From IMG/VR virus record IMGVR_UViG_3300030117_007285, positions 55,593 through 75,592 of that record: 20,000 nt of DNA; one strand, given 5' to 3'. The stretch comes from an uncultured virus (IMG/VR IMGVR_UViG_3300030117_007285). Taxonomy: Duplodnaviria; Heunggongvirae; Uroviricota; Caudoviricetes. Positions 617 to 20,000 of the stretch are shown piece after piece. Position 1 is the first letter of the stretch. Every line of letters begins with the position of its first letter. The notes under the pieces are model-generated. The model was not told the DNA's origin and searched no databases. It saw nothing but the letters and a program-made list of their open reading frames with translations. Made by a program: the position numbers and the translations under genes.

Positions 617-3088
617 ATGGCAGCACCTACATTATCTGATTACATAAAAAGAAAAGCGCTTCAAGTTTCAAATATTCAAACTCTTATAAGCTATTACGGG
701 GAGCTGTATCAATATTATTCTGATCTCCTACCAGATAACAAGTATATACATTACCTAGAGGAAAATACCTTCACTGAGGGGTTTAGCACAATGCCTCCAG
801 CCACTAGTAAATTCTTAGCGTTACGACCAGATCAGATGAATCTTTTACAACCTTATGTTAGAATTTTTAAAAAATTTAAGTTACCAGGTGGAAAAACTGA
901 AAAATTAGAATTCCCATTCGAAAACAAAACCGATTTGACTTCTCTTGAAGATCCACAAACTTACATTGGCGAGCCTTTTCCTTTTGTAGCTCAGAGGTTC
1001 AATGGTCCAACTGCTTTGCTGTCTGGAATAAGTATTACAGAGGGCGGCATTGACGGTCACGCAGTAACCACAAGAGATACAGACTGGGTTAGAGTTAATT
1101 TTGATTTATTTTTTCAAGATGCAAAACTTTTGTTTAAAAATTGGGGCACAAAAGATAAACCTTTAAGATACAAAGATTTGTTTTCGGTACCCGGCACAAC
1201 TAATTCATATAGTATTGTTTTAGAAATTGGATATAATGCCCCTGACGGTGCTGATGGGGATGTTAAAGTATCATCACAATCAAGAGCAGTTTATGAATTA
1301 TATACTTATGGCATGCCAGCAAGCTATGACTACGAGGAAACTGGAGAACTCTCTTTAAAATTTGAGCTTCAAGGTAACTTTGAAAGAATCCATGATTCAA
1401 TAAATTTATTAGATCAAAAATACTATAAACAAGTAAAAAAAGTAAACAATATGATTGTTTTAGAGGACGATGCGAAAACTTCAGTCGAGGAATACGAAAA
1501 AGAAATAAAAAAACTAACTGATAAAGAAGCCGGCTTAAAAAAAGAATTACAACAAGAGAAAACTAAACCAAATAAAAAACCCACGCTTAAAAATTCTTTG
1601 TTAAAGACACAACAGAATATTAAACAAAAAAGAAATTTAGTTCAAATAGCTAAGTCATCTGGAGCAACTCCTGCGAGTTTTCCGTTTATCACGGCATTGT
1701 ATCAGGCAGGTCTGATTTATTATTTTGAATTAGACAATGATACTTATAAAGATTACGTTAAAAAGATAGCCAAAGGCGAACCGGTTGATGTCTCTGATGT
1801 TACTTATTTACCTAAAAGAAAACAAAAAACTAGGCTAGAACCAATTGATTTTTTGAATAAAAATCCAAATACCAGTGCATACTTTAGTCAAACTTTAAGA
1901 ATAAAAAAATTTAATACTGATGACAAAGATGATTCTAGTGCGGAAAAAATTAAATATTTTTATTTTGGAGACTTGGTACAAGTCATATTAAATAATGCCA
2001 AAGGGACTGGTGTTGGTCAAGACCTAGACCAAATCGGCTCAAGTGAATTTGCTTATCTGTTTGGTCAAATAATGTGGATTAAAAATGAAAAAACAAAAAT
2101 ATTGTACAATATCTTAAATACACCCATATCTCTAGATATGTTTTTATTTGAAATAAACAGAGAAGTTTATCAAAAAAATCTAAATTTTATGTCTTTAACT
2201 TATTTTTTTACAACGTTCATGAAAAGATTTTTTGACTTAACAATTTTTGCCTATGAAAAAGCAGTTTCAGGCCAACAAAATCAAAAGTATTTTGCAGGCA
2301 CATCATACGTGCTTGATAAGGATAAATTCAATTCTGGCTCAAAATTCAAGAGAAAATTATATGATTTTGTTCCCACGTCAGATACAAGAGATACGATTGC
2401 GGCAAGATTGATAACAGCTATGCCGCTAGAAAGCACACTAACACCTCAAATAGCAAAAAAAAGAAATATACCTAAGTTTTACTTGGGCGGACCAGATAAA
2501 GGTCCTTTAAAAAGACTTAGTTTTTCAGTATCGCCCCTACAACTTCAAGCTGAATATCTTCTCGCAAAAAAAATGAGAGCGAACGCTGGTGTTAAAGGTA
2601 AAACAGTAAGTGACCCAGATTTTGATTCAATGTTGATTAGTTCTAGCACTAGATTGAGTCTAAGTTTACTTGGAAACGTGTTTTTTAAGATAGGTGATTA
2701 TATTTTTGTGGATAGTCGATTTGTTGACGGCGGATTTTTTACCCAAGAACAAAACAATATATTTTTTAGTGGATATTTTGGAATATATTCAATATCTCAT
2801 CGGTTTACCGCCAGAGGGGAGTGGTCAACTCAAATCGATGCTGAATTTATTAGCCAATCTCTAGAAATTAACCCGTCTTACAAAGCGTTTGCTGGGGATG
2901 TACCAAGACCTCAAAGTGTAGACGTCGCTGACGGAGCTAATCTTGGCAGACAAGAACTAATTGATATGTCAAAAACTGAATCCACTGTCGACAAAAAAGA
3001 TAGTACCGCGATTGCAAAAGCGCAAGCTAGTTCTGCCGGGAGCGATGAACCAACATCACCGGCGCCGCCTTCGGTACCTAAAAAATAA
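617..3088 (+). CDS. Large virion protein, probable baseplate hub (gp27/gpD-like C-terminus)
   Basis: 823 aa. The C-terminal LSLLGNVFFKIGDYIFVD...SGYFGIYSISHRFT..GEWSTQIDA resembles the terminal beta-barrel of hub proteins. It follows the LysM-like gene and has a central coiled-coil segment. Confidence 0.55.
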   Translation: MAAPTLSDYIKRKALQVSNIQTLISYYGELYQYYSDLLPDNKYIHYLEENTFTEGFSTMPPATSKFLALRPDQMNLLQPYVRIFKKFKLPGGKTEKLEFPFENKTDLTSLEDPQTYIGEPFPFVAQRFNGPTALLSGISITEGGIDGHAVTTRDTDWVRVNFDLFFQDAKLLFKNWGTKDKPLRYKDLFSVPGTTNSYSIVLEIGYNAPDGADGDVKVSSQSRAVYELYTYGMPASYDYEETGELSLKFELQGNFERIHDSINLLDQKYYKQVKKVNNMIVLEDDAKTSVEEYEKEIKKLTDKEAGLKKELQQEKTKPNKKPTLKNSLLKTQQNIKQKRNLVQIAKSSGATPASFPFITALYQAGLIYYFELDNDTYKDYVKKIAKGEPVDVSDVTYLPKRKQKTRLEPIDFLNKNPNTSAYFSQTLRIKKFNTDDKDDSSAEKIKYFYFGDLVQVILNNAKGTGVGQDLDQIGSSEFAYLFGQIMWIKNEKTKILYNILNTPISLDMFLFEINREVYQKNLNFMSLTYFFTTFMKRFFDLTIFAYEKAVSGQQNQKYFAGTSYVLDKDKFNSGSKFKRKLYDFVPTSDTRDTIAARLITAMPLESTLTPQIAKKRNIPKFYLGGPDKGPLKRLSFSVSPLQLQAEYLLAKKMRANAGVKGKTVSDPDFDSMLISSSTRLSLSLLGNVFFKIGDYIFVDSRFVDGGFFTQEQNNIFFSGYFGIYSISHRFTARGEWSTQIDAEFISQSLEINPSYKAFAGDVPRPQSVDVADGANLGRQELIDMSKTESTVDKKDSTAIAKAQASSAGSDEPTSPAPPSVPKK

Positions 3089-3109
3089 TTATTTTATTCT
3101 ATTTAATTT

Positions 3110-4396
3110 ATGTTCAGTAATAATTTTTCTAAGCCATCTGAGTTTTTCAAAAGTAAAAGCGAGTACGATAAATCAATACCACCAGATATTGATCTTAAAA
3201 CCATTGATATGTGGTATAATGTGCCTTATTTTGGCAAAATAGACTCTTTTGGTGTACCAGTTTTTCCAAGAGAAGTATTATTAGGTAATTTAGACACTGA
3301 TGGTAAATTTCAAGCTCTAAAGTTTGTATGTCGTGCGTTTAAAACCTTAGAATCTAAGGTTAACAGATCAAAATCAAAAAATGCTATAGAGCCAAGTTTG
3401 TTAGGCACATTTACTCCTAAAAAAGCTTGGGAGTCTGCTACAGAGTTATTTGATAAATATTTTGAGAACAATATATATAATGCTTTTCTAAACAATTTCT
3501 TGAACAATAAAAGAATAAGCTCATTTAACTGTTTTGTCAAGGAATACATAAATTTTTGTAAATTAGTTGCAGAAGATGTATCTTTAACATTCCCTAGTTT
3601 TATATTGAGCAACAATTGTACCAATAGAATATCTGGATTAATAATTGATTTGTCTAATGATCCTCATGATGATGCAGCAAAAAAAATTAATGACTATTTT
3701 AGTGATGATCAGTATATTACATTTTTAAATCTATGCGAGAGTTATGGATTTAAAGTTAACAGAAACGCTCCATGGCAATTAGTTGCTGATTTATCCAACC
3801 TACAGATGAGAGAGTTTGCAGCTGCAGAAGGTATCGATACTAGACAGAATGGTTTATTTGACACTCTATATTATAAAGATAGTGATCCGCCGCACATAAC
3901 GTATAACAATTTTAAAAGATATCTATGGCAAATGTATTCAGATTGGTTCTCTGTTAATACTACATATTCTAAAATAGAAGTAAAACATGGCTTTAACTCA
4001 TCATCGCCAATGTTTTCACAATTTAAAACTAAAAAAATAAATGAATTACCAGTTGAATTGTCACTGACTTTCTCTGAATTAGAACAATCTTATGGTGAAC
4101 TAAATTTTTTAAAATTATATTTAAAAATTAGATTAATAGAGGTTGACATAGAAAATAAATATGATATACTTGTAAATTATTTAGAACAATATTATAATTT
4201 AGCTGGTATCGAAGGTGCACTAGCTTTTGTGGATAGAAAACTAATAAAAACAAACATTTACACTTCTAACGAGCTTAAACCTTACTTTTTTGACTCTAAA
4301 GTATTGACTTCCGCTGGGTCTTCTGCTATAATAACACAGAATATCAATTCGCCACAATCAGCGAACGGTGGTGGTGGCTCAACTTCTGGATATTAA
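3110..4396 (+). CDS. Hypothetical phage protein (probably virion-associated)
   Basis: 428-aa ORF, the last gene before the promoter-marked switch to replication genes. It ends in GGGGSTSGY and has no recognised catalytic motif. Confidence 0.6.
   Translation: MFSNNFSKPSEFFKSKSEYDKSIPPDIDLKTIDMWYNVPYFGKIDSFGVPVFPREVLLGNLDTDGKFQALKFVCRAFKTLESKVNRSKSKNAIEPSLLGTFTPKKAWESATELFDKYFENNIYNAFLNNFLNNKRISSFNCFVKEYINFCKLVAEDVSLTFPSFILSNNCTNRISGLIIDLSNDPHDDAAKKINDYFSDDQYITFLNLCESYGFKVNRNAPWQLVADLSNLQMREFAAAEGIDTRQNGLFDTLYYKDSDPPHITYNNFKRYLWQMYSDWFSVNTTYSKIEVKHGFNSSSPMFSQFKTKKINELPVELSLTFSELEQSYGELNFLKLYLKIRLIEVDIENKYDILVNYLEQYYNLAGIEGALAFVDRKLIKTNIYTSNELKPYFFDSKVLTSAGSSAIITQNINSPQSANGGGGSTSGY
4143..4170 (+). 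promoter_or_regulatory. sigma70-type promoter inside ORF 3110-4396
   Basis: TTGACA (4143-4148), 16-nt spacer, TATACT (4165-4170), with extended -10 TG at 4162-4163. Confidence 0.55.
4304..4332 (+). promoter_or_regulatory. sigma70-type promoter for the replication module
   Basis: TTGACT (4304-4309), 17-nt spacer, TATAAT (4327-4332), with TGn extension. It lies about 65 nt upstream of the polA-like TTG. Confidence 0.75.
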
Positions 4397-4397
4397 A

Positions 4398-5585
4398 TTG
4401 CTTTTTCAAACATTTGATGAAAAAAATAAGTGCACCTTGGTTTATAAGAAAGGGACATTTTTAGAACAGGTAACGGACCAGTGTACTAAAACTTGGTCCT
4501 ATGCTACTTATCTACAAGATAAGGAGGTGGAATATGCTAGTCTTTACGCTATGGGCCAGTCACTGGAGCAGCTTTGCCCAGAAAATATTAGAGGGGAGTG
4601 GTCCTCCGTCCAAAGAAGAATTAAAGCGGCTTTCAAAGCAGCAAAAGAAGTAGGTTTAGACTTTGATGATTATTGTATTTATGAGTTTATTCCAAGGCAC
4701 TATTTAGAAAACTTTGCAGAAATAAAAAATAAAATTTGTGAGGATGTGTTTAATAGCTATCCAAAGCCTACAAATTATGACCATTTATTAAAAATCAATA
4801 AAGTCATCGCAGATATTAAAACAAAAAAAGTAAATATTGATCCTACAGTCATCGAAAGACTAACGGTGCAGGACAGAAACATATTTAAATTAATAAGTAA
4901 TTGTAATCCATATATTGATTACGATATGTTTAAAACTGTCACTGGTCGATTGGCAACAAAACAAAACTCATTTCCAGTGATGACACTTCCAAAAAAATAT
5001 CGTCAAGTTCTTACACCAACTAATGATTGGTTGTTTGAACTAGACTTTAATGCCTGTGAGCTGCGTGTTGCACTAGCTCTTCTTGGGCACGATCAACCAA
5101 AAGAAGATCTTCATGATTGGAATCTTAAAAACGTTTTCACCAGAACTAAAAGTAGAGAAAATGCAAAGAAAAGAATTTTTTCTTGGCTTTACAACCCAAA
5201 CAGTACTGATGATAAGGTAGATAAGATTTATGACCGTAAAATTCTAAAAGATGTGTATTTTGATAAAGTTTTAGGTAAAGTTCACACACAGTTCGGCCGC
5301 GAAATTGATTCAGATGAAGATCACGCCATTAGCTATATTATTCAATCTACAGCAGCTGATTTAGTTTTTGAGCAAATGTATAAAATTTGGGATCACTTAA
5401 AAGATAAAAAATCTTTTATTAAATTTTGTAATCATGATAGCATAGTTATCGATCTTGCAGAGGAAGACCAGCAAGACATAAATAAAATATCAAAACTATT
5501 TAGTAATACAAGATTCGGTAAATTTAAAGTAAACCATGAAGGCGGTAAAAGCTGGTCAGAAATGAAACCACTAAACATAAAATGA
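4398..5585 (+). CDS. Minimal family-A DNA polymerase (polymerase domain only, no recognisable exonuclease domains)
   Basis: Motifs TVTGRLAT, A (LFELDFNACELR), B (RENAKKRIFSWLYN), IIQSTAAD and C (NHDSIVID). TTG 4398, directly after the upstream TAA, is preferred over GTG 4368. Confidence 0.8.
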   Translation: MLFQTFDEKNKCTLVYKKGTFLEQVTDQCTKTWSYATYLQDKEVEYASLYAMGQSLEQLCPENIRGEWSSVQRRIKAAFKAAKEVGLDFDDYCIYEFIPRHYLENFAEIKNKICEDVFNSYPKPTNYDHLLKINKVIADIKTKKVNIDPTVIERLTVQDRNIFKLISNCNPYIDYDMFKTVTGRLATKQNSFPVMTLPKKYRQVLTPTNDWLFELDFNACELRVALALLGHDQPKEDLHDWNLKNVFTRTKSRENAKKRIFSWLYNPNSTDDKVDKIYDRKILKDVYFDKVLGKVHTQFGREIDSDEDHAISYIIQSTAADLVFEQMYKIWDHLKDKKSFIKFCNHDSIVIDLAEEDQQDINKISKLFSNTRFGKFKVNHEGGKSWSEMKPLNIK

Positions 5586-5592
5586 GGCGTAA

Positions 5593-6441
5593 ATGCAGAC
5601 CGTCATAGGTTTAGGTAGAGCAGGGTGTGATATAGCAGATTGCTTGTCACAATACTCGCAATATCAAATTAAAAAAATAGATGTGGGGTTAAAAAAGACT
5701 AAAACTACATTTGGTCTTAAGCATCAGAGCAGCCCTGAACTTTATGAACAAGCCATTTTGCCGAAAGGCATAAATAACTTCTTAGAGGGGGTGATGTCTG
5801 AAACTTTACTTATCACGAGTTGCGGTGCTGTCTCTGGTGCTTCTTTAAAAATTTTACAAAAAATAAACAAAAGAACTAAAATAAAATTATTATATATTAT
5901 TCCTCAAGAAGATGATCTTATATGTGAAAAAAAATTACAAAATAATTTACTTTTTAATGTTTTTCAAGAATATGCACGATCAAATGTGTTCGACCGCGTT
6001 TTTTTAGTTGACAATTCTAAGATGTCTGATATAATAGGTCCCGTACCAATATTAAGATTTTGGGATTCGATAAATAACTTAGTGGCGACAACATACCACA
6101 TGGTAAACGTATTTCAAAACACGCAACCAGTAATGACTACACAAACAAAACGTATAAATACCGCGCGAATATCTACATTTGGTTTATTAGATTCGCAGAA
6201 CAATTCAGAAAAAATGTTTTTTGATCTTGACATCCCAAGAGAAAAGAGTTATTATTATGGTGTTCCAAAAAAACAATTAGAAGAAGATCCTAATTTAATG
6301 GAGGTTATTAAAAAAAATTTAAAATTCAATATAGAGCATGAAAAAATGAAAACAACTTACTCGGTTCATTCAACCGACTATGATAAGCTTATAGCTTACT
6401 GCGAAAAAAGCAGCACTTTAATACAACAACTAGCAGTGTGA
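5593..6441 (+). CDS. Divergent tubulin/FtsZ-superfamily protein
   Basis: N-terminal VIGLGRAGCDIAD (T1 loop), KKIDVG, FLVDN and FWDSINNLVA follow the order of the FtsZ/TubZ GTPase domain. The GGGTGSG signature is degenerate (TSCGAVSGAS). RBS GAGG. Confidence 0.65.
   Translation: MQTVIGLGRAGCDIADCLSQYSQYQIKKIDVGLKKTKTTFGLKHQSSPELYEQAILPKGINNFLEGVMSETLLITSCGAVSGASLKILQKINKRTKIKLLYIIPQEDDLICEKKLQNNLLFNVFQEYARSNVFDRVFLVDNSKMSDIIGPVPILRFWDSINNLVATTYHMVNVFQNTQPVMTTQTKRINTARISTFGLLDSQNNSEKMFFDLDIPREKSYYYGVPKKQLEEDPNLMEVIKKNLKFNIEHEKMKTTYSVHSTDYDKLIAYCEKSSTLIQQLAV
6008..6035 (+). promoter_or_regulatory. Intragenic sigma70-type promoter upstream of the SSB gene
   Basis: TTGACA (6008-6013), 16-nt spacer, TATAAT (6030-6035), with TG at 6027-6028. 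Both hexamers match consensus exactly. Confidence 0.65.
6227..6255 (+). promoter_or_regulatory. Second intragenic sigma70-type promoter upstream of the SSB gene
   Basis: TTGACA (6227-6232), 17-nt spacer, TATTAT (6250-6255). Confidence 0.65.
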
Positions 6442-6456
6442 AAGATCAACGCACTG
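6434..6456 (+). promoter_or_regulatory. RNA hairpin in the SSB leader
   Basis: CAGTGTG-aaagatcaa-CGCACTG forms a 7-bp stem with one G-U pair, about 10 nt before RBS AAGGAG. Confidence 0.45.
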
Positions 6457-6480
6457 ACTTTAACTAAGGAGAAAATAATT

Positions 6481-7227
6481 ATGGCAATTAATATGGAGAA
6501 AATGCGCGCTCGCATGGAGGCGCTACAAGGAAACGGAAACAACAAAAAAAACAGTTTTTGGAAACCACAGGAGGGCGAACAGACTATCCGTTTGGTAGCA
6601 CCAGCAGATGGAGATCCCTTTCGAGATTATTGGTTTCACTATGATGTAGCGGGTGAGCCTGGGTTTCTTTCGCCAAAACGTAATTTTGGTGAGGATTGTC
6701 CACTCGATGACTATGTTCGTGCCCTGTGGCGTGAGGGTTCTGAGGAATCAAAGCGTGTTGCACGTAAGTTAGGTGCGAAGCAGCGTTTCTTTGCCCCGGT
6801 CCTTATTCGAGGGCAAGAAGATGAAGGCGTAAAAGTTTGGGGCTTTGGTAAGCGTGCTTACGAAACTCTACTTGGTCTTGTCCTTAATCCAGAATACGGC
6901 GATATTACAGATCCCAATGAGGGTACTGATTTAGTTATTGGTTATTCAAAGCCAGCAGGAGCTTCCTTTCCTGAAACTAAAATTACCCCACGCCGTCGTC
7001 CATCACTTTTGCATGAAGATGAAACACAGGCTCGCGCTCTTATGGAGTCCGTCCCTGATTTTGATGAGGTATTTTCAGATGCGCGCCGTTCCACTACGCA
7101 AGTAGCGGATATTCTTGATCGTTTCCTCAACACTGTTGATGAGGCGATATCCAATCAGCCAGTGGCAGCAGCAGCTGGATCGGTTTCGGATGTCGATAAG
7201 GCATTCTCTGAGCTACTAGGTAGCTAA
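6481..7227 (+). CDS. Single-stranded DNA-binding protein, T4 gp32-like
   Basis: FWKPQEGEQTIRLV, FHY, GEDCP, VKVWGFGK, YGDITDPNEGTDL and an acidic-hydrophobic tail (SDVDKAFSELLGS). Strong RBS. Confidence 0.85.
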   Translation: MAINMEKMRARMEALQGNGNNKKNSFWKPQEGEQTIRLVAPADGDPFRDYWFHYDVAGEPGFLSPKRNFGEDCPLDDYVRALWREGSEESKRVARKLGAKQRFFAPVLIRGQEDEGVKVWGFGKRAYETLLGLVLNPEYGDITDPNEGTDLVIGYSKPAGASFPETKITPRRRPSLLHEDETQARALMESVPDFDEVFSDARRSTTQVADILDRFLNTVDEAISNQPVAAAAGSVSDVDKAFSELLGS

Positions 7228-7233
7228 TCCTGC

Positions 7234-7260
7234 GGGGGGCTTGTCCCCCCCTTTATTTTT
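7234..7260 (+). terminator. Rho-independent terminator after SSB
   Basis: GGGGGG-cttgt-CCCCCC followed by CTTTATTTTT, just after the stop at 7227. Confidence 0.85.
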
Positions 7261-7280
7261 ATTATGAAAGGAAGAAAAAA

Positions 7281-7568
7281 TTGCTAGTAAGAGCGATTCA
7301 TTGTGAAGAGTGTAATACAACTGTATACTCAAGAGCATCAGAAGATTTAAGAGAATGTAAGTGTGGCCGAGTTAGAGTTTACGGCGGTTTCTTAAGTCAC
7401 TTTAAATATGACATAATGGGTAAAAAAACAAAGTTTAAAAAAATAAAAATGGAGATCAAAGCAACACCTGATGACTTATATGATGATTATGAAAGCATGG
7501 AAGACAGGTTTGGCTTGATCAATAAGAACACAGATAAAGAAAAAACACAAACAACATATGTTTTTTAG
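7281..7568 (+). CDS. Small Zn-ribbon-type phage protein
   Basis: CEEC...YSRASEDLRECKCGRVRVYGG (CxxC...CxCG...GG). TTG start with RBS AAGGA. Confidence 0.7.
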   Translation: MLVRAIHCEECNTTVYSRASEDLRECKCGRVRVYGGFLSHFKYDIMGKKTKFKKIKMEIKATPDDLYDDYESMEDRFGLINKNTDKEKTQTTYVF

Positions 7569-7577
7569 GAGATAATC

Positions 7578-7913
7578 GTGAAAAAATGGATAAAAGGAGA
7601 AGAAGGTTTTGATAAAGCCTTACAAGATATAGCAAATAGATATAAAGGTCTTGGGGGCGGTCCTACTAGTGAGTCTTCTGTACATGCATCAAAGCAAGAC
7701 ATAAGAGAGGGCTATGCTTGGTTTTGGTCTGATAATAGTGATGTATCTAATCTTATTCAGCGCTCTCGTGAATATATTTTAGAGATTAGAGATCATGGTG
7801 ACAATATTTCATTTAAGCTAGATAAAAGTGGCTATAGAGGCCCCATCTATGCTTTTAGACCAGACAGATTATTAAATGAAAATTTAGGAGAGGAGGAACA
7901 TGAGATTGGCTAA
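7578..7913 (+). CDS. Hypothetical protein
   Basis: 111 aa, GTG start with RBS AGGAG, fills the space between neighbours. Confidence 0.65.
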   Translation: MKKWIKGEEGFDKALQDIANRYKGLGGGPTSESSVHASKQDIREGYAWFWSDNSDVSNLIQRSREYILEIRDHGDNISFKLDKSGYRGPIYAFRPDRLLNENLGEEEHEIG

Positions 7914-9014
7914 AAAGAAATCCGCTGGTCGTTTAACAATGGACCAGATGAGAAAATTAATAAATAAAAAAGCAGGGCAAGAAGTTTCTGTTGATTTAGC
8001 AGATCCGAATAATCCAACAACTGTAAAGCAATGGATTCCAACTGGNNNNNNNNNNGGCTTGATAGTATTATCTGCCGCGGCAAGTTAGCTGGAATACCCG
8101 TGGGTAAAGTTACAGAGATTGCTGGTTTGGAGGCTAGCGGCAAGTCTTACATGGCTGCGCAGATAGCAGGCAACGCTCAGAAGATGGGGATAGATGTTGT
8201 CTACTTTGATTCAGAGTCTTCATTAGACTTTGGCTTTTTAGAGAAGGCCGGATGTGATCCATCTAAGATTCTTTATGTTCAAGCAACTTCAGTGGAGTTT
8301 GTCTTGGAGACGATTGAAGAATTACTCTCTTCAACCGACAGTCAATTTCTTTTTATCTGGGATAGTCTGGCTCTCACGCCTTCTATTTCAGATGTGGAAG
8401 GAGACTTCAATCCACAATCTACAATGGCCGTCAAAGCTAGGATTTTGTCAAAGGGTATGTCAAAACTAACTGTTCCCATTGCGAATAGTCAATCGACTTT
8501 CCTTGTGTTAAATCAGCTAAAGGCAAATATTACTCGCTCACCATCTGAAGCTTTAACAACGCCTTACATGACACCAGGCGGCAAAGCAATGATTTACGCT
8601 TATTCACTTCGTGTCTGGCTTACTCGACCAAAGGCGAAAGCATCTTTCGTAACAGACGATAAAGGTTATCGCATCGGCAATACCGTTAAAGTTAAGTTAG
8701 AAAAGTCTCGCTTTGGTTCGCAAGGGCGTCAATGTAAGTTCCAAATACTTTGGGGCGATAGCGTTGGTGTTGCTGACGAGGAAAGTTGGTTTGAAGCCAT
8801 CCAAGGCTCAGAACATCTCGACCGCGCAGGCGCCTGGTATGAACTTAAATTTAATGATGGCACAAGCGAAAAGTTTCAGTCAGCCCGTTGGTTAGACAAA
8901 CTTGAAGATGAAAAGTTTAAGTCACGCGTATTAGAAATAATGGATGAGGAAGTTGTCCGTAAATTTGATAAAAGAACTGGTGATGCCACTGAGTTCTATG
9001 AGGAAACTGCGTAA
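7900..9014 (+). CDS. recA: RecA/UvsX-family recombinase (one gene, spans the N gap at 8046-8055)
   Basis: WIPTG[gap]WLDSIICRG, Walker A GLEASGKS, YFDSE, Walker B FIWDSLA, LNQL and TPGGKAM. RBS GGAGG before ATG 7900. The frame change coincides with the N run. Confidence 0.9.
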
Positions 9015-9019
9015 GAAAA

Positions 9020-10021
9020 ATGAATGAGAGAGTAGTAATTATAGATGGGCTAAACATGTTTCTGCGAAGTTACATTGTAGTCCCACAGATTTCCAAAGAA
9101 GGTCAGCCCATTGGTGGGACAACTGGCTTTCTTAAATCTCTTCAAAAGCTTTGTCGTGAAATGAAACCAACACAGGTTATTGTTTGTTGGGACGGCCGCG
9201 GCGGAAGTAGAAAACGTAAACAACAAAACAAAAATTACAAAGAGGGTCGTGCACCGATACGTCTTAATCGTGATTTTAAAGTTTTAACTGAGGCGCAAGA
9301 GAAAGAAAATAAAATATGGCAGCAAGAAAGAATCTGTGAATATCTAAATAACTTTCCAGTTATGCAGCTAATCGCAGATGAGGTTGAGGCCGATGATATC
9401 ATATCTTACTTGTGCAGACACAGTAGTTTACGTGATAGTGAGAAAATTATAGTTTCAAGCGATAAAGATTTTTATCAATTGCTTGATCAAAAGACTATAC
9501 TTTTCCGCCCGGTGCAGAAAAAGCTATTAACTCAAAATAGTATAATAGATGAGCATGGTATTCATCCAAACAACTTTGCTCTTGCTCGTGCGATTGTCGG
9601 AGACAAATCTGATAACCTAGATGGAGTTCCTGGCATCGGCCTAAAAACTGTTGCAAAAAGATTCCCTTTCTTTAAAAAAGAAGAAGATGTTTATATTAAT
9701 AATTTGATAGAGTTTTGTGAAAATCAAGAAAGCAATGCAAAAGCGTTCGTCTCTATCAAAGAGAATAAACAACTTATTCAGTCTAATTACAACTTGATGC
9801 AATTGTATAGTCCTAGTTTGTCAACGCAGACTAAACAAAGTATCGAATGGATTGTTGATAACTTTGAACATACTTTTAATAAAACTCAGACACATGCCAT
9901 GATGTTACAAGATGGCATTAACGAGATTAATTGGAATGCGATGTTTGAAAGTTTTGCAAGAATCCAAAGGGATAAAAAAGGGAATCAAGCAAATGAGAAA
10001 ACTAAAACCAATTTTTATTGA
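9020..10021 (+). CDS. 5'-3' exonuclease / flap endonuclease (Pol I N-terminal domain / T4 RNase H-like)
   Basis: IIDGLN, VCWDG, YKEGR, EADDII, SSDKDFYQL and the H3TH motif GDKSDNLDGVPGIGLKT. Confidence 0.92.
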   Translation: MNERVVIIDGLNMFLRSYIVVPQISKEGQPIGGTTGFLKSLQKLCREMKPTQVIVCWDGRGGSRKRKQQNKNYKEGRAPIRLNRDFKVLTEAQEKENKIWQQERICEYLNNFPVMQLIADEVEADDIISYLCRHSSLRDSEKIIVSSDKDFYQLLDQKTILFRPVQKKLLTQNSIIDEHGIHPNNFALARAIVGDKSDNLDGVPGIGLKTVAKRFPFFKKEEDVYINNLIEFCENQESNAKAFVSIKENKQLIQSNYNLMQLYSPSLSTQTKQSIEWIVDNFEHTFNKTQTHAMMLQDGINEINWNAMFESFARIQRDKKGNQANEKTKTNFY

Positions 10022-10364
10022 AAATAGCGAAGTACCGGTCTGGCTGTCAAAGATTGCACCAATTGATGTGTGGGCTTTTTCTTTTGGACCATTTGTTGTT
10101 TGCCGTGGAGAGTTAAGTGAAAAAGTAAGAGTTCACGAAACTATTCATTTTTTACAACAATTAGAAATGCTTTTTGTTTTTCAGTGGATATTGTATGGAT
10201 TATTTTATGTTATTGGCCGCGTGACAAAGGGAAGCTGGAGCGCAGCATACTACGGTAATCCATTCGAATTAGAGGCTTACGATAATGATACAGACTTTGG
10301 CTATTTAGATAATAGACCATGGTGGAGCTGGATTAATTACATAAAAGATCTATTCAAAAAATAA
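9993..10364 (+). CDS. Small HEXXH zincin-like protein
   Basis: HETIH..Q, a hydrophobic helix, and NPFELEAY (candidate third ligand). ATG 9993 is preferred over 9912 because it minimises overlap. Confidence 0.7.
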   Translation: MRKLKPIFIENSEVPVWLSKIAPIDVWAFSFGPFVVCRGELSEKVRVHETIHFLQQLEMLFVFQWILYGLFYVIGRVTKGSWSAAYYGNPFELEAYDNDTDFGYLDNRPWWSWINYIKDLFKK

Positions 10365-10380
10365 AACAAAAATAATTACC

Positions 10381-10422
10381 TATAACGGGTGTGATCATTT
10401 CCGCACCCTTACGGGGGTTATA
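10381..10422 (+). promoter_or_regulatory. Structured RNA leader of the CglF-like gene
   Basis: GGGTGTG-atcatttc-CGCACCC stem (10387-10408), outer TATAAC/GTTATA pair, and an alternative CCC:GGGGG pairing over the likely RBS. Confidence 0.45.
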
Positions 10423-10425
10423 CTA

Positions 10426-10662
10426 TTGAAAAAAACACTTATTATCACTTTACTAATCTTATCTTTTGCAGCAACAGCTGCGCCACCAAAAAAATCAAAA
10501 TTTTATGACTTTGGAGATCAAATGATCGACGGTGAGATTAAAAAACCAACAGGCCAGTATGTTAATTCTAGAGAACGAGCAAGGTTTGATAGGCTGTTAA
10601 GTTTAAAGAAATCTTTTCTGCCTAAAATGTTTCTTACATCAAAAGAAAAAATATTTAAATAA
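10426..10662 (+). CDS. Small secreted protein resembling the myxobacterial gliding-motility protein CglF/GltF
   Basis: Signal peptide MKKTLIITLLILSFAATA, then YDFGDQMIDGEIKKPTGQYVNSRERARFDRLLSLKKSFLPKM. This matches the CglF pattern as I recall it (DF-D--I-GEL-KP-G-Y---R----F--L---R--F-P). Confidence 0.6.
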   Translation: MKKTLIITLLILSFAATAAPPKKSKFYDFGDQMIDGEIKKPTGQYVNSRERARFDRLLSLKKSFLPKMFLTSKEKIFK

Positions 10663-10669
10663 TTTGACC

Positions 10670-10698
10670 TTGACATTGCTTTTAACCTAAGTTAAAAT
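10670..10698 (+). promoter_or_regulatory. sigma70-type promoter
   Basis: TTGACA (10670-10675), 17-nt spacer, TAAAAT (10693-10698). Intergenic. Confidence 0.75.
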
Positions 10699-10727
10699 AT
10701 ATTTAGTGTATAACACAGGAGGCAGTG

Positions 10728-10889
10728 GTGCGTAAGTTTTTATACGGTTTAGGTTTGATGCTGTATGTTTTACTCGCTAGCGCCTTTGTTCAACCAATAG
10801 ATATTAATGAATCATCAAGTATTTCGAAGAGTTTAGAAAATACAAAAGGTAAAAAAAAGAAAAAGAAAAAGCGTTTACTCAGGCGCTAA
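10728..10889 (+). CDS. 53-aa membrane/secreted peptide with poly-basic tail (not in ORF track)
   Basis: RBS AGGAGG then GTG. Translation MRKFLYGLGLMLYVLLASAFVQPIDINESSSISKSLENTKGKKKKKKKRLLRR*. It has its own promoter upstream. Confidence 0.7.
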   Translation: MRKFLYGLGLMLYVLLASAFVQPIDINESSSISKSLENTKGKKKKKKKRLLRR

Positions 10890-10939
10890 ACTTTTTTACC
10901 CTGTAACATTCACCACTTATAAAATAATTGACATTCAAC

Positions 10940-10968
10940 TTGACTTTTTAAACTACAAAGGTTATATT
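10940..10968 (+). promoter_or_regulatory. sigma70-type promoter for helicase/RNR
   Basis: TTGACT (10940-10945), 17-nt spacer, TATATT (10963-10968). An extra TTGACA lies at 10928. Confidence 0.65.
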
Positions 10969-10994
10969 TATATCCACAAGTCAGCGAGGAATTA

Positions 10995-12353
10995 ATGGAC
11001 AGTTTAGGAATTTTTGGAAAGAGTTTCCAAGAAAATATGTGTAAGCTTATGCTTTACGACCGGTCATATTGTGATCAAATGCAAGAAGTACTGGATGTGA
11101 AATATTTAGAATTAAAGTATCTTCAGGTTTTTACAGATAAGCTTTTTGGTTATAAAAAACAATACGGTATACATCCTACAAATGATATTCTTAATTCTGT
11201 TTTTAACACAGAATTGACAGAGGAAAATGAAGTAATCCAAAAACAAGTTATGGATTATTTTATAAAGCTGCAAGCGTTTCCAGATATACAAGATAAAGAT
11301 TATATTGTTTCTAAAAGTGTAGACTTCTGTAGAAAGCAAGTTCTTAAAAAAGCTATGATGAAATCAGTGCCACTTCTGAACAAGTGTTCGTTTGAAGAGA
11401 TAGAAAAACTAATATCTGATGCACTACGCTTGGGCGTAAGCAATGATCACGGCTATGACTACATTAAAGATTTTGAAGCAAGATTTATTGAGAAAGCACG
11501 TAATCCCGTGTCAACTGGGTGGGCAAAGATAGATAAAATTACTAAAGGTGGTTTAGGCCAGGGTGAACTCGTGGTTGTGGTCGCGCCGACTGGTGCAGGA
11601 AAGTCTCATGTTCTTGTGCATCTTGGTGCTCAAGCACTAAAACAAGGTAAAAATGTTGTCCATTTCACGTTAGAATTGGCAGATACGTCCGTTGCGCAAC
11701 GTTATGATGCCTGTCTTACTGGTATTCCATTAGATGAGCTTATAAATCAAAAAGATGAGGTTTATGACGTAATTAAGGATATTGATGGGCAACTCATTGT
11801 AAAAGAATTCCCAACTAAGTCTGCTTCCACTGTGACTCTAAAAAATCACTTGGAAAAGATCAGACAGACAGAAATGGAAATCGATATGATCGTGGTCGAC
11901 TACGGTGATTTGTTAAAAAGTTCAACAGTTCGTAAAAATTCTGAGAAAAGACATGAATTAGAATCTATTTATGAAGAGCTACGCGGACTTGGACAAGAGT
12001 TTGGTTGCCCTATAGTAACCGCTTCACAAACCAATCGAAAGGGTCTAAACGAAGAAGTAATCACAATGGAATCAATCTCTGAGGCATTTAATAAGTGCTT
12101 TGTTGCAGATTTTATTATCAGTCTATCCAGGACTATTAAGGATAGAAACTGTAATATTGCGCGAATTTTTGTCGCTAAAAACAGAAATGGCCCTGATGGA
12201 ATTGTTTTTTCCGCGTTTATGGATACGTCAAGTGTATCCATTAAAGTTCTAGAAAGAGACGATGTTGTAAAACTACAACAACAGCAATTAGCAAAACAAC
12301 AACAAAAAGAGTTCTCCAAAGCCCGAGAAGTCTTTAGAAACATGAACAAATAA
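10995..12353 (+). CDS. dnaB: Replicative DNA helicase, DnaB/T4 gp41-like
   Basis: STGW..ID...GGL, Walker A APTGAGKS, FTLEL, IVVDYGDLL, TASQTNR and KNRNG. Confidence 0.92.
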   Translation: MDSLGIFGKSFQENMCKLMLYDRSYCDQMQEVLDVKYLELKYLQVFTDKLFGYKKQYGIHPTNDILNSVFNTELTEENEVIQKQVMDYFIKLQAFPDIQDKDYIVSKSVDFCRKQVLKKAMMKSVPLLNKCSFEEIEKLISDALRLGVSNDHGYDYIKDFEARFIEKARNPVSTGWAKIDKITKGGLGQGELVVVVAPTGAGKSHVLVHLGAQALKQGKNVVHFTLELADTSVAQRYDACLTGIPLDELINQKDEVYDVIKDIDGQLIVKEFPTKSASTVTLKNHLEKIRQTEMEIDMIVVDYGDLLKSSTVRKNSEKRHELESIYEELRGLGQEFGCPIVTASQTNRKGLNEEVITMESISEAFNKCFVADFIISLSRTIKDRNCNIARIFVAKNRNGPDGIVFSAFMDTSSVSIKVLERDDVVKLQQQQLAKQQQKEFSKAREVFRNMNK

Positions 12354-17365: not shown

Positions 17366-17397
17366 GTATCAGTTACAAAGATTGTTTGGGAGAAAGA

Positions 17398-20000
17398 ATG
17401 ACAGATAGAATACAAAGCAGCATTCCTTTTGTGGGGCTTCACGCTCATAGCGGAACCGGTAGTCCTTTTGATGGTCTTGGTTATCCTAGTGAACATATGG
17501 ACTTTGCTTATCAAAATGGCAATGATGCCCTTGCTCTTACTGATCATGGCAACATGAATGGATTTGCTTATCAAGTTCAACATGCACAGAAAATGATGAA
17601 AGAGGGTAAAGACTTCAAGCCTATTTTTGGTGTTGAAGCTTACTTCCTGCCTAGCATTGAAGAGTGGCGAGAAGAACTGGAGCGCGTCAAAGAAGATAAA
17701 AAAGCAAAGAAGTCGATTGATAAATCGGCCTCTGGAACAACTATTGAGAATGAAGAAAACAAAAGAGAAGTTAAAAATATTCTCAATCGTCGACGCCATC
17801 TTATCTTATTAGCACAGAACCAGAAAGGTCTAAACAACATCTTCTCTCTTGTATCAAAGTCATACAGAGAGGAAAACTTCTATCGCTTCCCGCGCATCGA
17901 TTATGCTATGCTGAAAGAGCACAACGAAGGTGTAATCGCAGCCTCGGCTTGTCTTGGTGGAGTATACGCTGGAAACTTCTGGGAAAACCGTGAACAAGGT
18001 GATGAAGCTGTACTTAATGCTATGCGCGAAACAACCAGAAACATGGTTGGTGTTTTTGGTGATCGTTGGTACGGTGAACTTCAATGGAACAATGTACCAG
18101 AACAGCATCAATTAAACCGTCTAATTGTAAAAGTTTGTAATGAATTTGGCGTCGAATTGATTTCTACGGCTGATAGTCACTATCCAAACAGAACTGCCTG
18201 GAAAGATCGAGAACTTTACAAAAGACTGGGTTGGCTAAGTAGAGGTATGCCCAAGTGGGCAACAAACACGGAACTCCCAGAGGGCGTTGAAGAAATTGGT
18301 TACGAATTGTTTCCAAAGAATGGCGACCAGATGTGGGAGGCGTATAAAGAATATTCACAAAAAGTAGGAGTACAGTACGATGATAATATTATCCGAAGAT
18401 CTATTGAAAGAACGCATCAAATCGCTCACGAAAGAATTGAACGGTTTATGCCAGACAACACAGTTCGCTTACCAAGCTTTGTGGTTCCCGCTGGACAGAC
18501 TCCCGATAGAGCCCTTGTCGCTGCTTGTGTGGATGGGCTTAGAGGGCTTGGCTTAACAAACAACCCAGAGTATGTTCAACGACTAAAAGAAGAGATGAAC
18601 GTAATCAGCGAGCGTGGCTTTAGCAAATATTTCTTAACTATGAAGTCTATCGCTGATAAAGCAACAGAAGTTCAGCTAACAGGTGCTGGACGTGGTTCTG
18701 CTGCTGGTTCTTTAGTTGCTTATGCTCTTGGCATCACACAAGTTGATCCTATCAAATATAATCTTCTATTCTCTCGTTTTATGACGAAAGATTCGAAAGA
18801 CTATCCTGATATCGATTATGATGTTTCTAATCCAATGGAACTTAAAGAAATGTTGATTGATGAGTGGGGCGGCAACACCGTGGTTCCTATCTCTAACTTT
18901 AACAAACTTCAGTTACGTTCTTTAATTAAGGATATTGCAAAATTCTATGAGGTTCCATTTGTAGAGGCAAACTCTGTGACTTCTAAGATGCTCGCAGAAG
19001 CGACCCCTATTGCAAAAAAGAAACACGGTATTAAGGCTGGTGTGTATGCGCCTACGTTTGAAGAGGTGATGGAGTATTCTGACTCCCTCAAAGCGTTTCT
19101 AAGAAAATACCCCAAGATTAAAACTCATGTCGAGGCTTTAGTTGGCGAGGTTCGTTCTGTATCTCGTCACGCTGGTGGCGTTGTTATTGGCGAAGAATTA
19201 GACAAGTATATGCCACTTATTAACTCTGGTGGTGTAACTCAAACGCCTTGGTCTGAAGGTCAGCATGTTCGACAACTAGAGCCAATGGGTTTTATTAAGT
19301 TTGACATTCTTGGCCTTTCCACTTTGAAAATGATTGAAGGTGCTGTCTATCACATTTTAAAGAAACAAGGAAACCCAGACCCCAGCTTTGATGACATTAA
19401 AAAGTTTTATGATAAACATTTACACCCTGATAGTATAAATCTAAAAGACAAGAAAGTCTATGAGAATATCTTTTGGAAGGGTAAGTGGGCCGGAATATTC
19501 CAGTTCGCTGAGAAGGGGGCTCAGAACTTTTGTAAAAGAACGAAGCCAAAGAATATTATTGATATTGCCTCTATCACTTCTATCTATCGTCCTGGTCCGC
19601 TGTCCGCGAACGTTCACGAGGACTTTGTAGAAGCAAAAGAAAACCCAAGAGGTATTCGCTATGGGCATGATATTGTAAAAGAAGTTACAAAAGAAACTTA
19701 CGGTTTCCTTATCTTCCAAGAGCAAATTGCTTTGTTGGCCCATAGATTGGGCAAAGACTTGTCTCTGGATGAAGGTAACAAGCTCCGTAAGCTATTAACT
19801 AAAAAGGGCACTGGAGCAGCTGCCGAACAAAAAAATAAAATAAAACTTAAGTTTATTCAAGGATGTATCGATAAAGGTTTAAAGGAACAATGGGCAGAAA
19901 AAATGTGGGCGAAGTTTGAATACTTCTCCGGCTATGGTTTCAATAAATCTCATGCTGTTTCTTATTCCATTATATCTTTTCAATGTGCTTGGCTATTTAA
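17398..20000 (+). CDS. dnaE: DNA polymerase III alpha subunit (partial, runs off the window; not in ORF track)
   Basis: Manual translation gives PHP motifs LHAHS..SPFDG, LTDHGNM, FGVEAY, HLILLA, SACLGG and TADSHY. Polymerase motifs are GRGSAAGS, YPDIDYD, SRHAGG, KFDILGL, GIFQF, YRPGP, TYGFLIFQEQ and YGFNKSHA. Confidence 0.95.
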   Translation, partial: MTDRIQSSIPFVGLHAHSGTGSPFDGLGYPSEHMDFAYQNGNDALALTDHGNMNGFAYQVQHAQKMMKEGKDFKPIFGVEAYFLPSIEEWREELERVKEDKKAKKSIDKSASGTTIENEENKREVKNILNRRRHLILLAQNQKGLNNIFSLVSKSYREENFYRFPRIDYAMLKEHNEGVIAASACLGGVYAGNFWENREQGDEAVLNAMRETTRNMVGVFGDRWYGELQWNNVPEQHQLNRLIVKVCNEFGVELISTADSHYPNRTAWKDRELYKRLGWLSRGMPKWATNTELPEGVEEIGYELFPKNGDQMWEAYKEYSQKVGVQYDDNIIRRSIERTHQIAHERIERFMPDNTVRLPSFVVPAGQTPDRALVAACVDGLRGLGLTNNPEYVQRLKEEMNVISERGFSKYFLTMKSIADKATEVQLTGAGRGSAAGSLVAYALGITQVDPIKYNLLFSRFMTKDSKDYPDIDYDVSNPMELKEMLIDEWGGNTVVPISNFNKLQLRSLIKDIAKFYEVPFVEANSVTSKMLAEATPIAKKKHGIKAGVYAPTFEEVMEYSDSLKAFLRKYPKIKTHVEALVGEVRSVSRHAGGVVIGEELDKYMPLINSGGVTQTPWSEGQHVRQLEPMGFIKFDILGLSTLKMIEGAVYHILKKQGNPDPSFDDIKKFYDKHLHPDSINLKDKKVYENIFWKGKWAGIFQFAEKGAQNFCKRTKPKNIIDIASITSIYRPGPLSANVHEDFVEAKENPRGIRYGHDIVKEVTKETYGFLIFQEQIALLAHRLGKDLSLDEGNKLRKLLTKKGTGAAAEQKNKIKLKFIQGCIDKGLKEQWAEKMWAKFEYFSGYGFNKSHAVSYSIISFQCAWLF

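Follow-up and report, generated by a model that had tools for sequence, protein, structure and literature searches.

Profile comparisons identify a 78-aa protein of an uncultured phage as a homolog, at the superfamily level, of the gliding-motility protein CglF/GltF, which here has a new, phage-borne branch that is widespread in the ocean. The window, i.e., the whole stretch of 20,000 nucleotides analyzed here, covers the final 20 kb of an IMG/VR record of 75.6 kb (IMGVR_UViG_3300030117_007285, positions 55,593 to 75,592) with a CheckV completeness of 42%. The encoded protein is very likely a functional member of the F family, which we write CglF/GltF/NfsF, and its gene stands among phage replication genes.

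The gene corresponds to an ORF listed on the + strand, stop codon included, with a TTG start (Table 1). This TTG is the first start possible after the upstream stop, and it is shared by all 16 phage sequences compared. The sequence-only reading had described here a 78-aa protein with a signal peptide and the core YDFGDQMIDGEIKKPTGQYVNSRERARFDRLLSLKKSFLP, and both the ORF and the core are found at this place. Pairwise analysis of 14 distinct phage coding sequences (91 pairs) revealed a median dN/dS of 0.058, with a mean dS of 0.56 and a mean dN of 0.033; pN/pS was 0.146 in the signal-peptide part versus 0.069 in the mature part, which is thus the more constrained of the two. In a large protein collection, 230 of 231 candidate proteins matched the F-like protein at E ≤ 0.01. 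Conservation and dN/dS together rule out a spurious ORF: the F-like gene is real and under strong purifying selection. The protein had no match in Pfam or PHROGs even at E ≤ 10 and none in PADLOC at E ≤ 0.01, and a PDB profile search returned RadA only, at chance level (best E 0.014, no stretch passing). A metatranscriptome (X20) contained 6% of the words; its contigs cover only 10835-10873, a poly-A/lysine run, and 10887-11085, the start of DnaB, and none lies on the F-like gene, a result that speaks neither for nor against expression.

Table 1. Features of the F-like gene and its surroundings, in window coordinates.
Feature	Position	Strand	Basis
GGGGG, candidate ribosome-binding site	10413..10417	+	8 nt before TTG; sequence inspection, candidate only
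CglF/GltF-family gene, 78 aa, TTG start	10426..10662	+	NF033764, hhalign, dN/dS
Signal-peptide-like N-terminus, residues 1-18	10426..10479	+	sequence, AF2 helix 2-16, relatives alike
Conserved block KKSKFYDFGDQMIDGEIK, residues 22-39	10489..10542	+	invariants, AF2 beta elements, hhalign
C-terminal helix SRERARFDRLLSLKKSFLPKMFLT, residues 48-71	10567..10638	+	AF2, invariants, hhalign
Small protease-like protein, phrog_15610, HETIH motif	9912..10364	+	PHROGs E 9.9e-19; syntenic in 16/17 viral loci
Promoter-like TTGACA-17-TAAAAT, between both small genes	10670..10698	+	11/12 matches
54-aa ORF, hydrophobic N-terminal helix, poly-Lys/Arg tail	10725..10889	+	kept in 15/15 viral loci examined
Terminator-like hairpin with T-run, end of 54-aa ORF	10870..10897	+	1 found vs 0.3 expected
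DnaB-like replicative helicase, next large gene	10995..12353	+	Pfam DnaB_C 2e-25, phrog_19 3e-71

Against the NCBIfam model NF033764 (CglF), the phage protein scored 37.6 bits (E 1.7e-9), residues 20-70 aligning with positions 33-83 of the 88 in the model, and 11 of 11 relatives of the protein matched the same model. In the reverse direction, a profile of the phage-type family recognized 12 canonical CglF genes, i.e., genes with 81-101 bits on NF033764, at 33.9-44.1 bits. Alignment of the phage-type and canonical profiles with hhalign gave a probability of 97.5% (E 6.2e-12) over 51 columns, in which residues 22-72 of the phage protein face residues 41-91 of the 94-aa canonical protein. This reciprocal profile similarity over the mature domain is that of a member of the CglF/GltF/NfsF superfamily. 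The resemblance to CglF/GltF noticed from the sequence alone thus holds as homology, with a significant profile match, but the score stays below the 90-bit equivalog cutoff of NF033764. This cutoff is narrow: the model is matched by 226 of the 301 genomes of the cellular relatives' phylum, usually two or three times per matching genome, and just 3 exceed 90 bits; in the five MAGs with the closest cellular relatives (G001-G005), all 11 matching places score 24-40 bits. As to nomenclature, PMC4488436 writes 'CglF (GltF)' and names NfsF in passing in its introduction.

The N-terminus of the phage protein shows, in this order, MKK, a hydrophobic run and ATA followed by A, an arrangement that resembles a type I signal peptide both by eye and through the helix of the AF2 model, with a putative cleavage site between ATA and A. 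Since the protein contains no cysteine, it has no lipobox and, as far as its sequence tells, is not a lipoprotein. By inspection, its layout is that of a small exported protein (~80-90 aa, type I signal peptide, no lipobox). In the AF2 model (mean pLDDT 74.7), an extended segment precedes helix 48-71. The conserved block KKSKFYDFGDQMIDGEIK carries the invariant residues F26, Y27, D28, F29, Q32, I34, D35, G36 and I38 as well as short beta elements at residues 33-34 and 37-38, and hhalign pairs it with KKETVYDFEDDVVEGSFI of canonical CglF. The C-terminal helix, whose pLDDT reaches block means over 10 residues of 91 (residues 51-60) and 86 (residues 61-70), contains the invariants R49, F54, R56, L57, L60, K61, K62, S63, F64 and L65, and its end aligns with SFVPEMLKSA, the C-terminus of canonical CglF. 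The most conserved parts of the protein are these regions of predicted strand and C-terminal helix. Residues invariant in the 80 cellular copies (I34, D35, G36, P41, R49, F54 and L60) are intact in 18 of 18 phage copies of group A, and the peculiarities of that group (G30, M33, G43, Q44, N47, S59 and L70) fall between the cellular-invariant positions.

According to PMC3169522, GltF (= CglF, MXAN_4868) of M. xanthus is a cell-envelope protein of 89 aa with a signal peptide; it is needed for gliding, it co-localizes with AglZ at focal adhesion clusters, and GltD no longer localizes to clusters when gltF is missing. The 78-aa phage protein is likewise a small signal-peptide protein, the motifs YDF..G..P..Y..R...L..[IL][KR].SF.P are common to both, and an extended segment with a C-terminal helix is predicted for each (AF2 for the phage protein, PMC11761067 for GltF). 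The two differ in that their identity is ~35%, the phage gene has no gltD/E/G neighbors, and the C-terminal extension EKIFK of the phage protein is unaligned to canonical CglF. According to the AlphaFold predictions in PMC11761067, GltF is mostly disordered; its C-terminal helix lies in a crevice of GltC, an outer-membrane-associated TPR protein, and one strand pairs with the TonB-like domain of GltG, GltD being contacted as well, so that GltF would act as a clasp and form a bridge from the outer-membrane platform to the periplasmic/inner-membrane part. In canonical CglF, the helix predicted to occupy the GltC crevice would be the one ending SFVPEMLKSA. The numbering of GltF in PMC11761067 runs to 147, with the strand at 94-111 and the helix at 133-147. 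The extra residues are presumably N-terminal; if so, the strand would be the KK.TVYDF..D.V.G block and the helix the SFVPEMLKSAEDI end of canonical CglF. In hhalign, these two elements align with phage residues 22-39 and 63-72, and block KKSKFYDFGDQMIDGEIK may therefore be the counterpart of the strand predicted by PMC11761067 to bind GltG.

To which cellular system the phage-type protein belongs was deduced from the loci of its relatives. A scan of one genome per species returned 91 relatives, and the 80 kept are nearly all from Myxococcota, Myxococcales or Deltaproteobacteria MAGs, a few bearing odd automatic labels, e.g., Enterobacteriaceae or Acidobacteriota. In six of six long cellular loci analyzed with NCBIfam, the F gene comes directly after barrels, GltC, a large TPR protein and GltE, all on the same strand. 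These loci contain one or two OMP_myx_plus beta-barrels (64-112 bits, cutoff 60), a GltC-like gene (178-204 bits, cutoff 450), a GltD-like TPR protein of ~1,140-1,230 aa with YbgF-type repeats and a GltE-like gene (58-83 bits, cutoff 225). Of the 56 cellular loci that include a full 10 kb upstream, 52 have a GltC-like gene in the same orientation, and L066, L083, L094 and L100 are the exceptions. GltG was found downstream of the phage-type F gene in none of the six long loci, where the F gene is followed by a DEAH helicase (four loci) or by a choice-of-anchor-D or MIDAS-adhesin-like protein (two loci). The cluster barrel-barrel-GltC-GltD-like-GltE-F without adjacent GltG lies at ~2,000-10,300 in each of L023, L024, L031, L041, L043 and L057.

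A different arrangement surrounds the other F paralog of the same MAGs, namely GltC-(GltD-like-)GltE-F-GltG (168-305 bits)-TPR protein-histidine kinase (L125-L127); in this canonical-type cluster, the G004 and G005 loci show the GltC-like gene, which the G003 contig is too short to reach. In a genome whose CglF lies above the cutoff (100.8 bits), the order is adhesin-barrel-GltC (480 bits)-D-E-F-GltG (500 bits). Because the nearest relatives of the phage protein lie in the cluster without GltG, and a canonical-type paralog is present elsewhere in the same MAGs, sequence and gene order assign the phage-type subfamily to the F subunit of a second, paralogous Glt-like system. This second system of uncultured aquatic Myxococcota appears to be uncharacterized. 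The phage protein finds its best match in the F genes of this system: identity reaches 72-73% in the mature part, these genes score 86-142 bits on the profile on which the window protein scores 139, and all invariant residues are in common. The cellular F genes are embedded in a cluster at 51-70% GC, whereas the phage copies stand alone at 32-47% GC. NfsF of the M. xanthus Nfs sporulation complex is a further paralog of GltF, and the order nfsA-H (barrels, C, D, E, F) presumably resembles the cellular cluster holding the phage-type gene, with the difference that the latter has no adjacent G and H genes. Of the gliding label first given to the phage gene, the kinship with the GltF superfamily stands; the link to gliding is not established, the nearest relatives lying in a paralogous cluster without GltG. 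Fourteen second F-like rows from cellular loci score 28 bits or more against the family profile, and most of them lie just downstream of the first copy. Tandem divergent F-like genes (29-95 bits) occur in L028, L031, L035, L036, L040, L041, L043, L044, L051, L054, L078, L085 and L092.

On the phage side, the window encodes a baseplate wedge protein, a gp32-like SSB, a UvsX-like recombinase, a 5'-3' exonuclease, DnaB, a class II ribonucleotide reductase and a PolIII-alpha-type polymerase (Pfam, PHROGs). Elsewhere on the record are the large terminase, portal, head protease, major head protein, sheath, tube and baseplate hub together with primase, SbcCD and RuvC, and one strand holds 43 of the 44 ORFs of the record remainder. 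With this set of structural and replication genes on one record, the source is a large myovirus and the F-like gene is phage-borne, as had been assumed; a cellular or prophage contig is ruled out, the structural and replication genes all being on one strand. No tRNA was found in the 75.6 kb record. Profile scans of the same record for GltC, GltE, GltG and the OMP_myx_plus barrel gave no match, and a GltC scan of five related viral records, of which two have a completeness of 73-78%, was likewise negative. The F-like gene thus stands without other glt genes in this record, in agreement with the sequence-only reading, and outside the gltE-F-gltG placement that marks gliding GltF. A short family-A polymerase-like ORF, matched by DNA_pol_A in its C-terminal part only, was also observed in the window at 4368-5585, in the same phage as the PolIII-alpha-type polymerase, which has a PHP domain (17386-20000).

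The immediate neighbors of the F-like gene are small. As listed, the phrog_15610 ORF overlaps the end of the exonuclease gene by ~110 nt, and its true start is probably downstream of 9912 because the match begins later in relatives. The 54-aa ORF, preceded by AGGAGG, has a Ser-rich linker and a KKKKKKKRLLRR tail; it gave no Pfam, PHROG or PADLOC match, and it might work together with the F-like protein. Promoter-like sites such as that between the two small genes are no more frequent than in shuffles (3 found, mean of 3.4 in shuffles). DnaB lies downstream of the F-like gene in all 14 related viral loci that reach that far.

The gene is conserved in this setting and occurs well beyond it. In 17 related viral contigs (L002-L018, 58-99% identity), the F-like gene always follows the exonuclease, and the protease-like gene is detectable in 16 of them. 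Three other viral contigs (L019-L021, 64% identity) show other neighbors, including phage GroEL and a MoxR-type ATPase. Among marine metagenome contigs, 464 relatives of the F-like protein were found. Among the 80 kept, 79 lie on contigs of 32-47% GC, and the remaining locus, at 52% GC, has cellular GltD/E flanks; by their flanks, 18 belong to group A and 19 to group B, and 42 were unclassified with the markers used. Nine long unclassified loci were scanned (82 proteins): phage-type genes were present in six (endolysin/amidase domains, NUDIX, thymidylate synthase, RNR, phrog_405 polymerase, peptide deformylase), and three gave no PHROG match. Proteins with endolysin/amidase domains adjoin the F-like gene or lie near it in L195 (10256-11389), L176 (1379-2251) and L203 (7083-7961). 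NUDIX hydrolases, too, are found near the F-like gene in other marine phage contexts, unlike the replication module of the window. The closest ESM Atlas clusters (96, 51 and 65 members) consist entirely (100%) of viral proteins named 'hypothetical protein'.

At least one fifth of the sampled words was present in 13 DNA runs from 7 studies, 12 of these runs being labeled marine metagenome, and the run with the largest share is possibly the source sample itself. Several contigs of a marine DNA run (X1) match only the core (~10491-10551) and have unrelated sequence on both sides, which indicates, on sequence similarity, that other carriers of the family (phages or cells) are present in that sample. 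None of 50,697 GenBank phage records matched in tblastn at E ≤ 10; the F-like gene is thus not carried by any isolated phage deposited there. The earlier statement that no phage cglF had been described agrees with our literature search, in which no account of a CglF, GltF or NfsF encoded by a phage came up; envelope-modifying auxiliary genes are discussed in a 2026 preprint on myxobacterial viruses (10.64898/2026.09.14.751636), in whose accessible text 'Glt' does not occur.

The relationship between viral and cellular copies was analyzed in a quick-search tree of 169 rows, left from 191 after identical cores were dropped; it comprises few columns (83) and omits two long-branch canonical rows as well as tandem and other paralogs. 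One branch (SH-aLRT 90) parts 75 cellular rows from 84 virus or low-GC rows, which puts cellular and viral homologs on opposite sides, and a single label change suffices to explain the virus/cell tree. A smaller earlier tree, with phage groups A and B apart, is superseded by this one. Mean identity is 59% among virus rows, 55% among cellular rows and 52% between the two sets. Only three columns separate the sets strongly (P20, K67 and F69), the main differences being K67 and F69; since K and F are favored by AT-rich genomes, composition may contribute to the split. The branch to the canonical CglF outgroup has a length of 10 and is saturated, so that neither the root nor the direction of transfer can be read from this tree. 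The F-like gene has a GC content of 30%, compared with 37% for the phage and 51-70% for the cellular loci. This GC gap and the single virus/cell branch give the picture, as far as sequences tell, of an old transfer followed by spread within phages, not of a recent capture. The direction was probably from cell to phage because only the cellular copies sit with partner genes. The capture of a host subunit, as initially proposed, is accordingly plausible in its direction, the event itself being old. The gene shows the marks of an auxiliary, host-derived gene: a native cellular context, a dN/dS of 0.058 and 17 syntenic viral loci.

A Myxococcota-type host is plausible for these phages because the family is confined to Myxococcota-type genomes and gltF was found, among 1,180 proteomes, in Myxococcales and Bdellovibrionales only (PMC3169522). 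The predatory deltaproteobacterial-type host suggested by the sequence-only reading fits this family distribution, but the phages, at 32-47% GC, differ widely from all cellular carriers detected, which have 51-70%. Among the 80 kept of the 91 genome relatives, none had a GC content below 51%, and the 80 kept metagenome loci included no low-GC cellular carrier, the one with cellular flanks having 52% GC. Marine Bdellovibrionota are generally low-GC bacteria.

As the best overall explanation, offered tentatively and at less than even confidence, we propose that phage F serves as a working substitute in a Glt-like complex of the host. The host Sec system would export the phage pre-protein to the periplasm, where the mature protein of ~60 residues, which closely reproduces the F subunit (CglF/GltF/NfsF) of Glt-type trans-envelope complexes, would take the F position in the host's own Glt-like complex during infection. 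There it would dock to GltC-like and GltG/D-like host partners, the contacts being those of the published prediction. The likeliest effect would be that host F is supplemented or replaced and the complex stays assembled while host gene expression fails. An action through the host complex is suggested because the phage carries a complete, selected, exported F subunit without partners, and a working substitute is favored because both predicted contact elements are intact. The docking step itself is rather probable, and the supplementing direction of its effect can be put forward with some hesitation. The partner contacts were predicted for a ~35% identical paralog, and both elements are present and conserved in the phage protein; against docking, the nearest cellular clusters have no adjacent GltG, so that one of the proposed partners was not located. 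Phage F would then be an auxiliary gene product mimicking a host protein, for which cyanophage psbA, among the host-derived auxiliary genes of marine phages, offers a likeness in concept only, that of one phage-carried subunit acting on a large host machine; psbA is a metabolic-core subunit, whereas phage F is homologous to a structural adaptor in a motility-type machine that spans the envelope.

The same docking could have the opposite effect, as a two-sided adaptor in excess could uncouple a complex as easily as sustain it. An excess of phage F would then saturate the GltC-like and GltG/D-like sites each on its own, or bind one of them more tightly, and so uncouple or lock the complex; the gain would be receptor masking (superinfection exclusion, progeny spared debris) or a stop of motility or differentiation, which is what the sequence-only reading had proposed. 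Homology and context bear on this effect exactly as they do on substitution, and the most discriminating columns, K67 and F69, fall within the helix predicted to bind GltC, where these virus-versus-cell changes could mean altered binding. In addition, the F-like gene sits among early/replication genes, a usual place for exclusion genes, and there are precedents, since Tip (D3112) and Aqs1 (DMS3) block host type IV pili and T5 Llp acts on FhuA. Tip and Aqs1, however, are motility-organelle inhibitors that are not homologs of their targets, whereas phage F is the homolog of a machine part. Moreover, inhibitory mimics usually lose one interface, whereas in the phage copy both contact elements and every invariant residue are preserved; AT bias, too, would yield K (AAR codons) and F (TTY codons), and PADLOC gave no match. 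We regard uncoupling as unlikely, though worth weighing against substitution, the sequence being compatible with either effect.

Re-use of the protein for a phage-specific task unrelated to Glt, e.g., binding to another TPR protein, would mean that the hosts are not Glt-bearing. The branch that parts virus-borne from all sampled cellular copies, the distance in GC between the phages and any cellular carrier, and the want of both a GenBank isolate phage with the gene and a documented host would agree with it. Purifying selection, however, keeps precisely the residues conserved in the cellular copies, which is unexpected with changed partners and makes this re-use improbable.

Least probable of all is an accessory role in envelope disruption or lysis, in which the secreted protein would loosen the link between the outer membrane and the periplasmic scaffold late in infection, alongside the endolysin: an endolysin/amidase protein is indeed the next gene downstream in L195 and L176 and lies ~2 kb (L203) to 7 kb (L166) away in L203, L205 and L166, and a conserved 54-aa membrane-type ORF follows the F-like gene in the window, but the window and the 17 related loci form a replication module with no endolysin nearby, the neighbors are an exonuclease, a protease-like gene and DnaB, the mature protein shows neither the lipobox nor the transmembrane anchor of spanins, whose cassettes have an adjacent holin and endolysin, and bulk membrane damage needs no strongly conserved contact motifs of a host family.

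Returning to phage F as a substitute subunit, its widest implication, which we consider a long shot, is that a Glt-type trans-envelope machine driven by the proton motive force is central to the infection cycle of many uncultured marine phages, which are spread worldwide and differ in genome layout, and that this is why all of them keep the F-adaptor gene. If this were true, the phage's own clasp would control the coupling of the host motor to the outer-membrane platform, with possible uses in steering infected cells (attachment to or gliding on particles), in excluding rival phages, or in the phage's own entry or exit. It would also be the first virus-encoded structural part of a bacterial gliding-type motility apparatus, and it would identify marine Myxococcota or Bdellovibrionota-like predators as the hosts of these phages. 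GltF is among the least understood parts of Agl-Glt; the long persistence of a viral clade with just this 60-residue adaptor reveals the residues that matter and suggests a control point of the complex at the F position. An unannotated family of marine phage proteins thereby gains a name and a testable function, and the F-like gene becomes a host marker for several groups of large uncultured marine phages.

Attention is also drawn to the second, apparently uncharacterized Glt-like cluster in aquatic Myxococcota. In two of its loci, very large choice-of-anchor-D proteins were observed (L041, 13021-16362; L043, 12634-16614), each with a MIDAS-adhesin-like region (NF052240 'Bdello', sub-threshold), and these could be a surface adhesin of the second Glt-like system.
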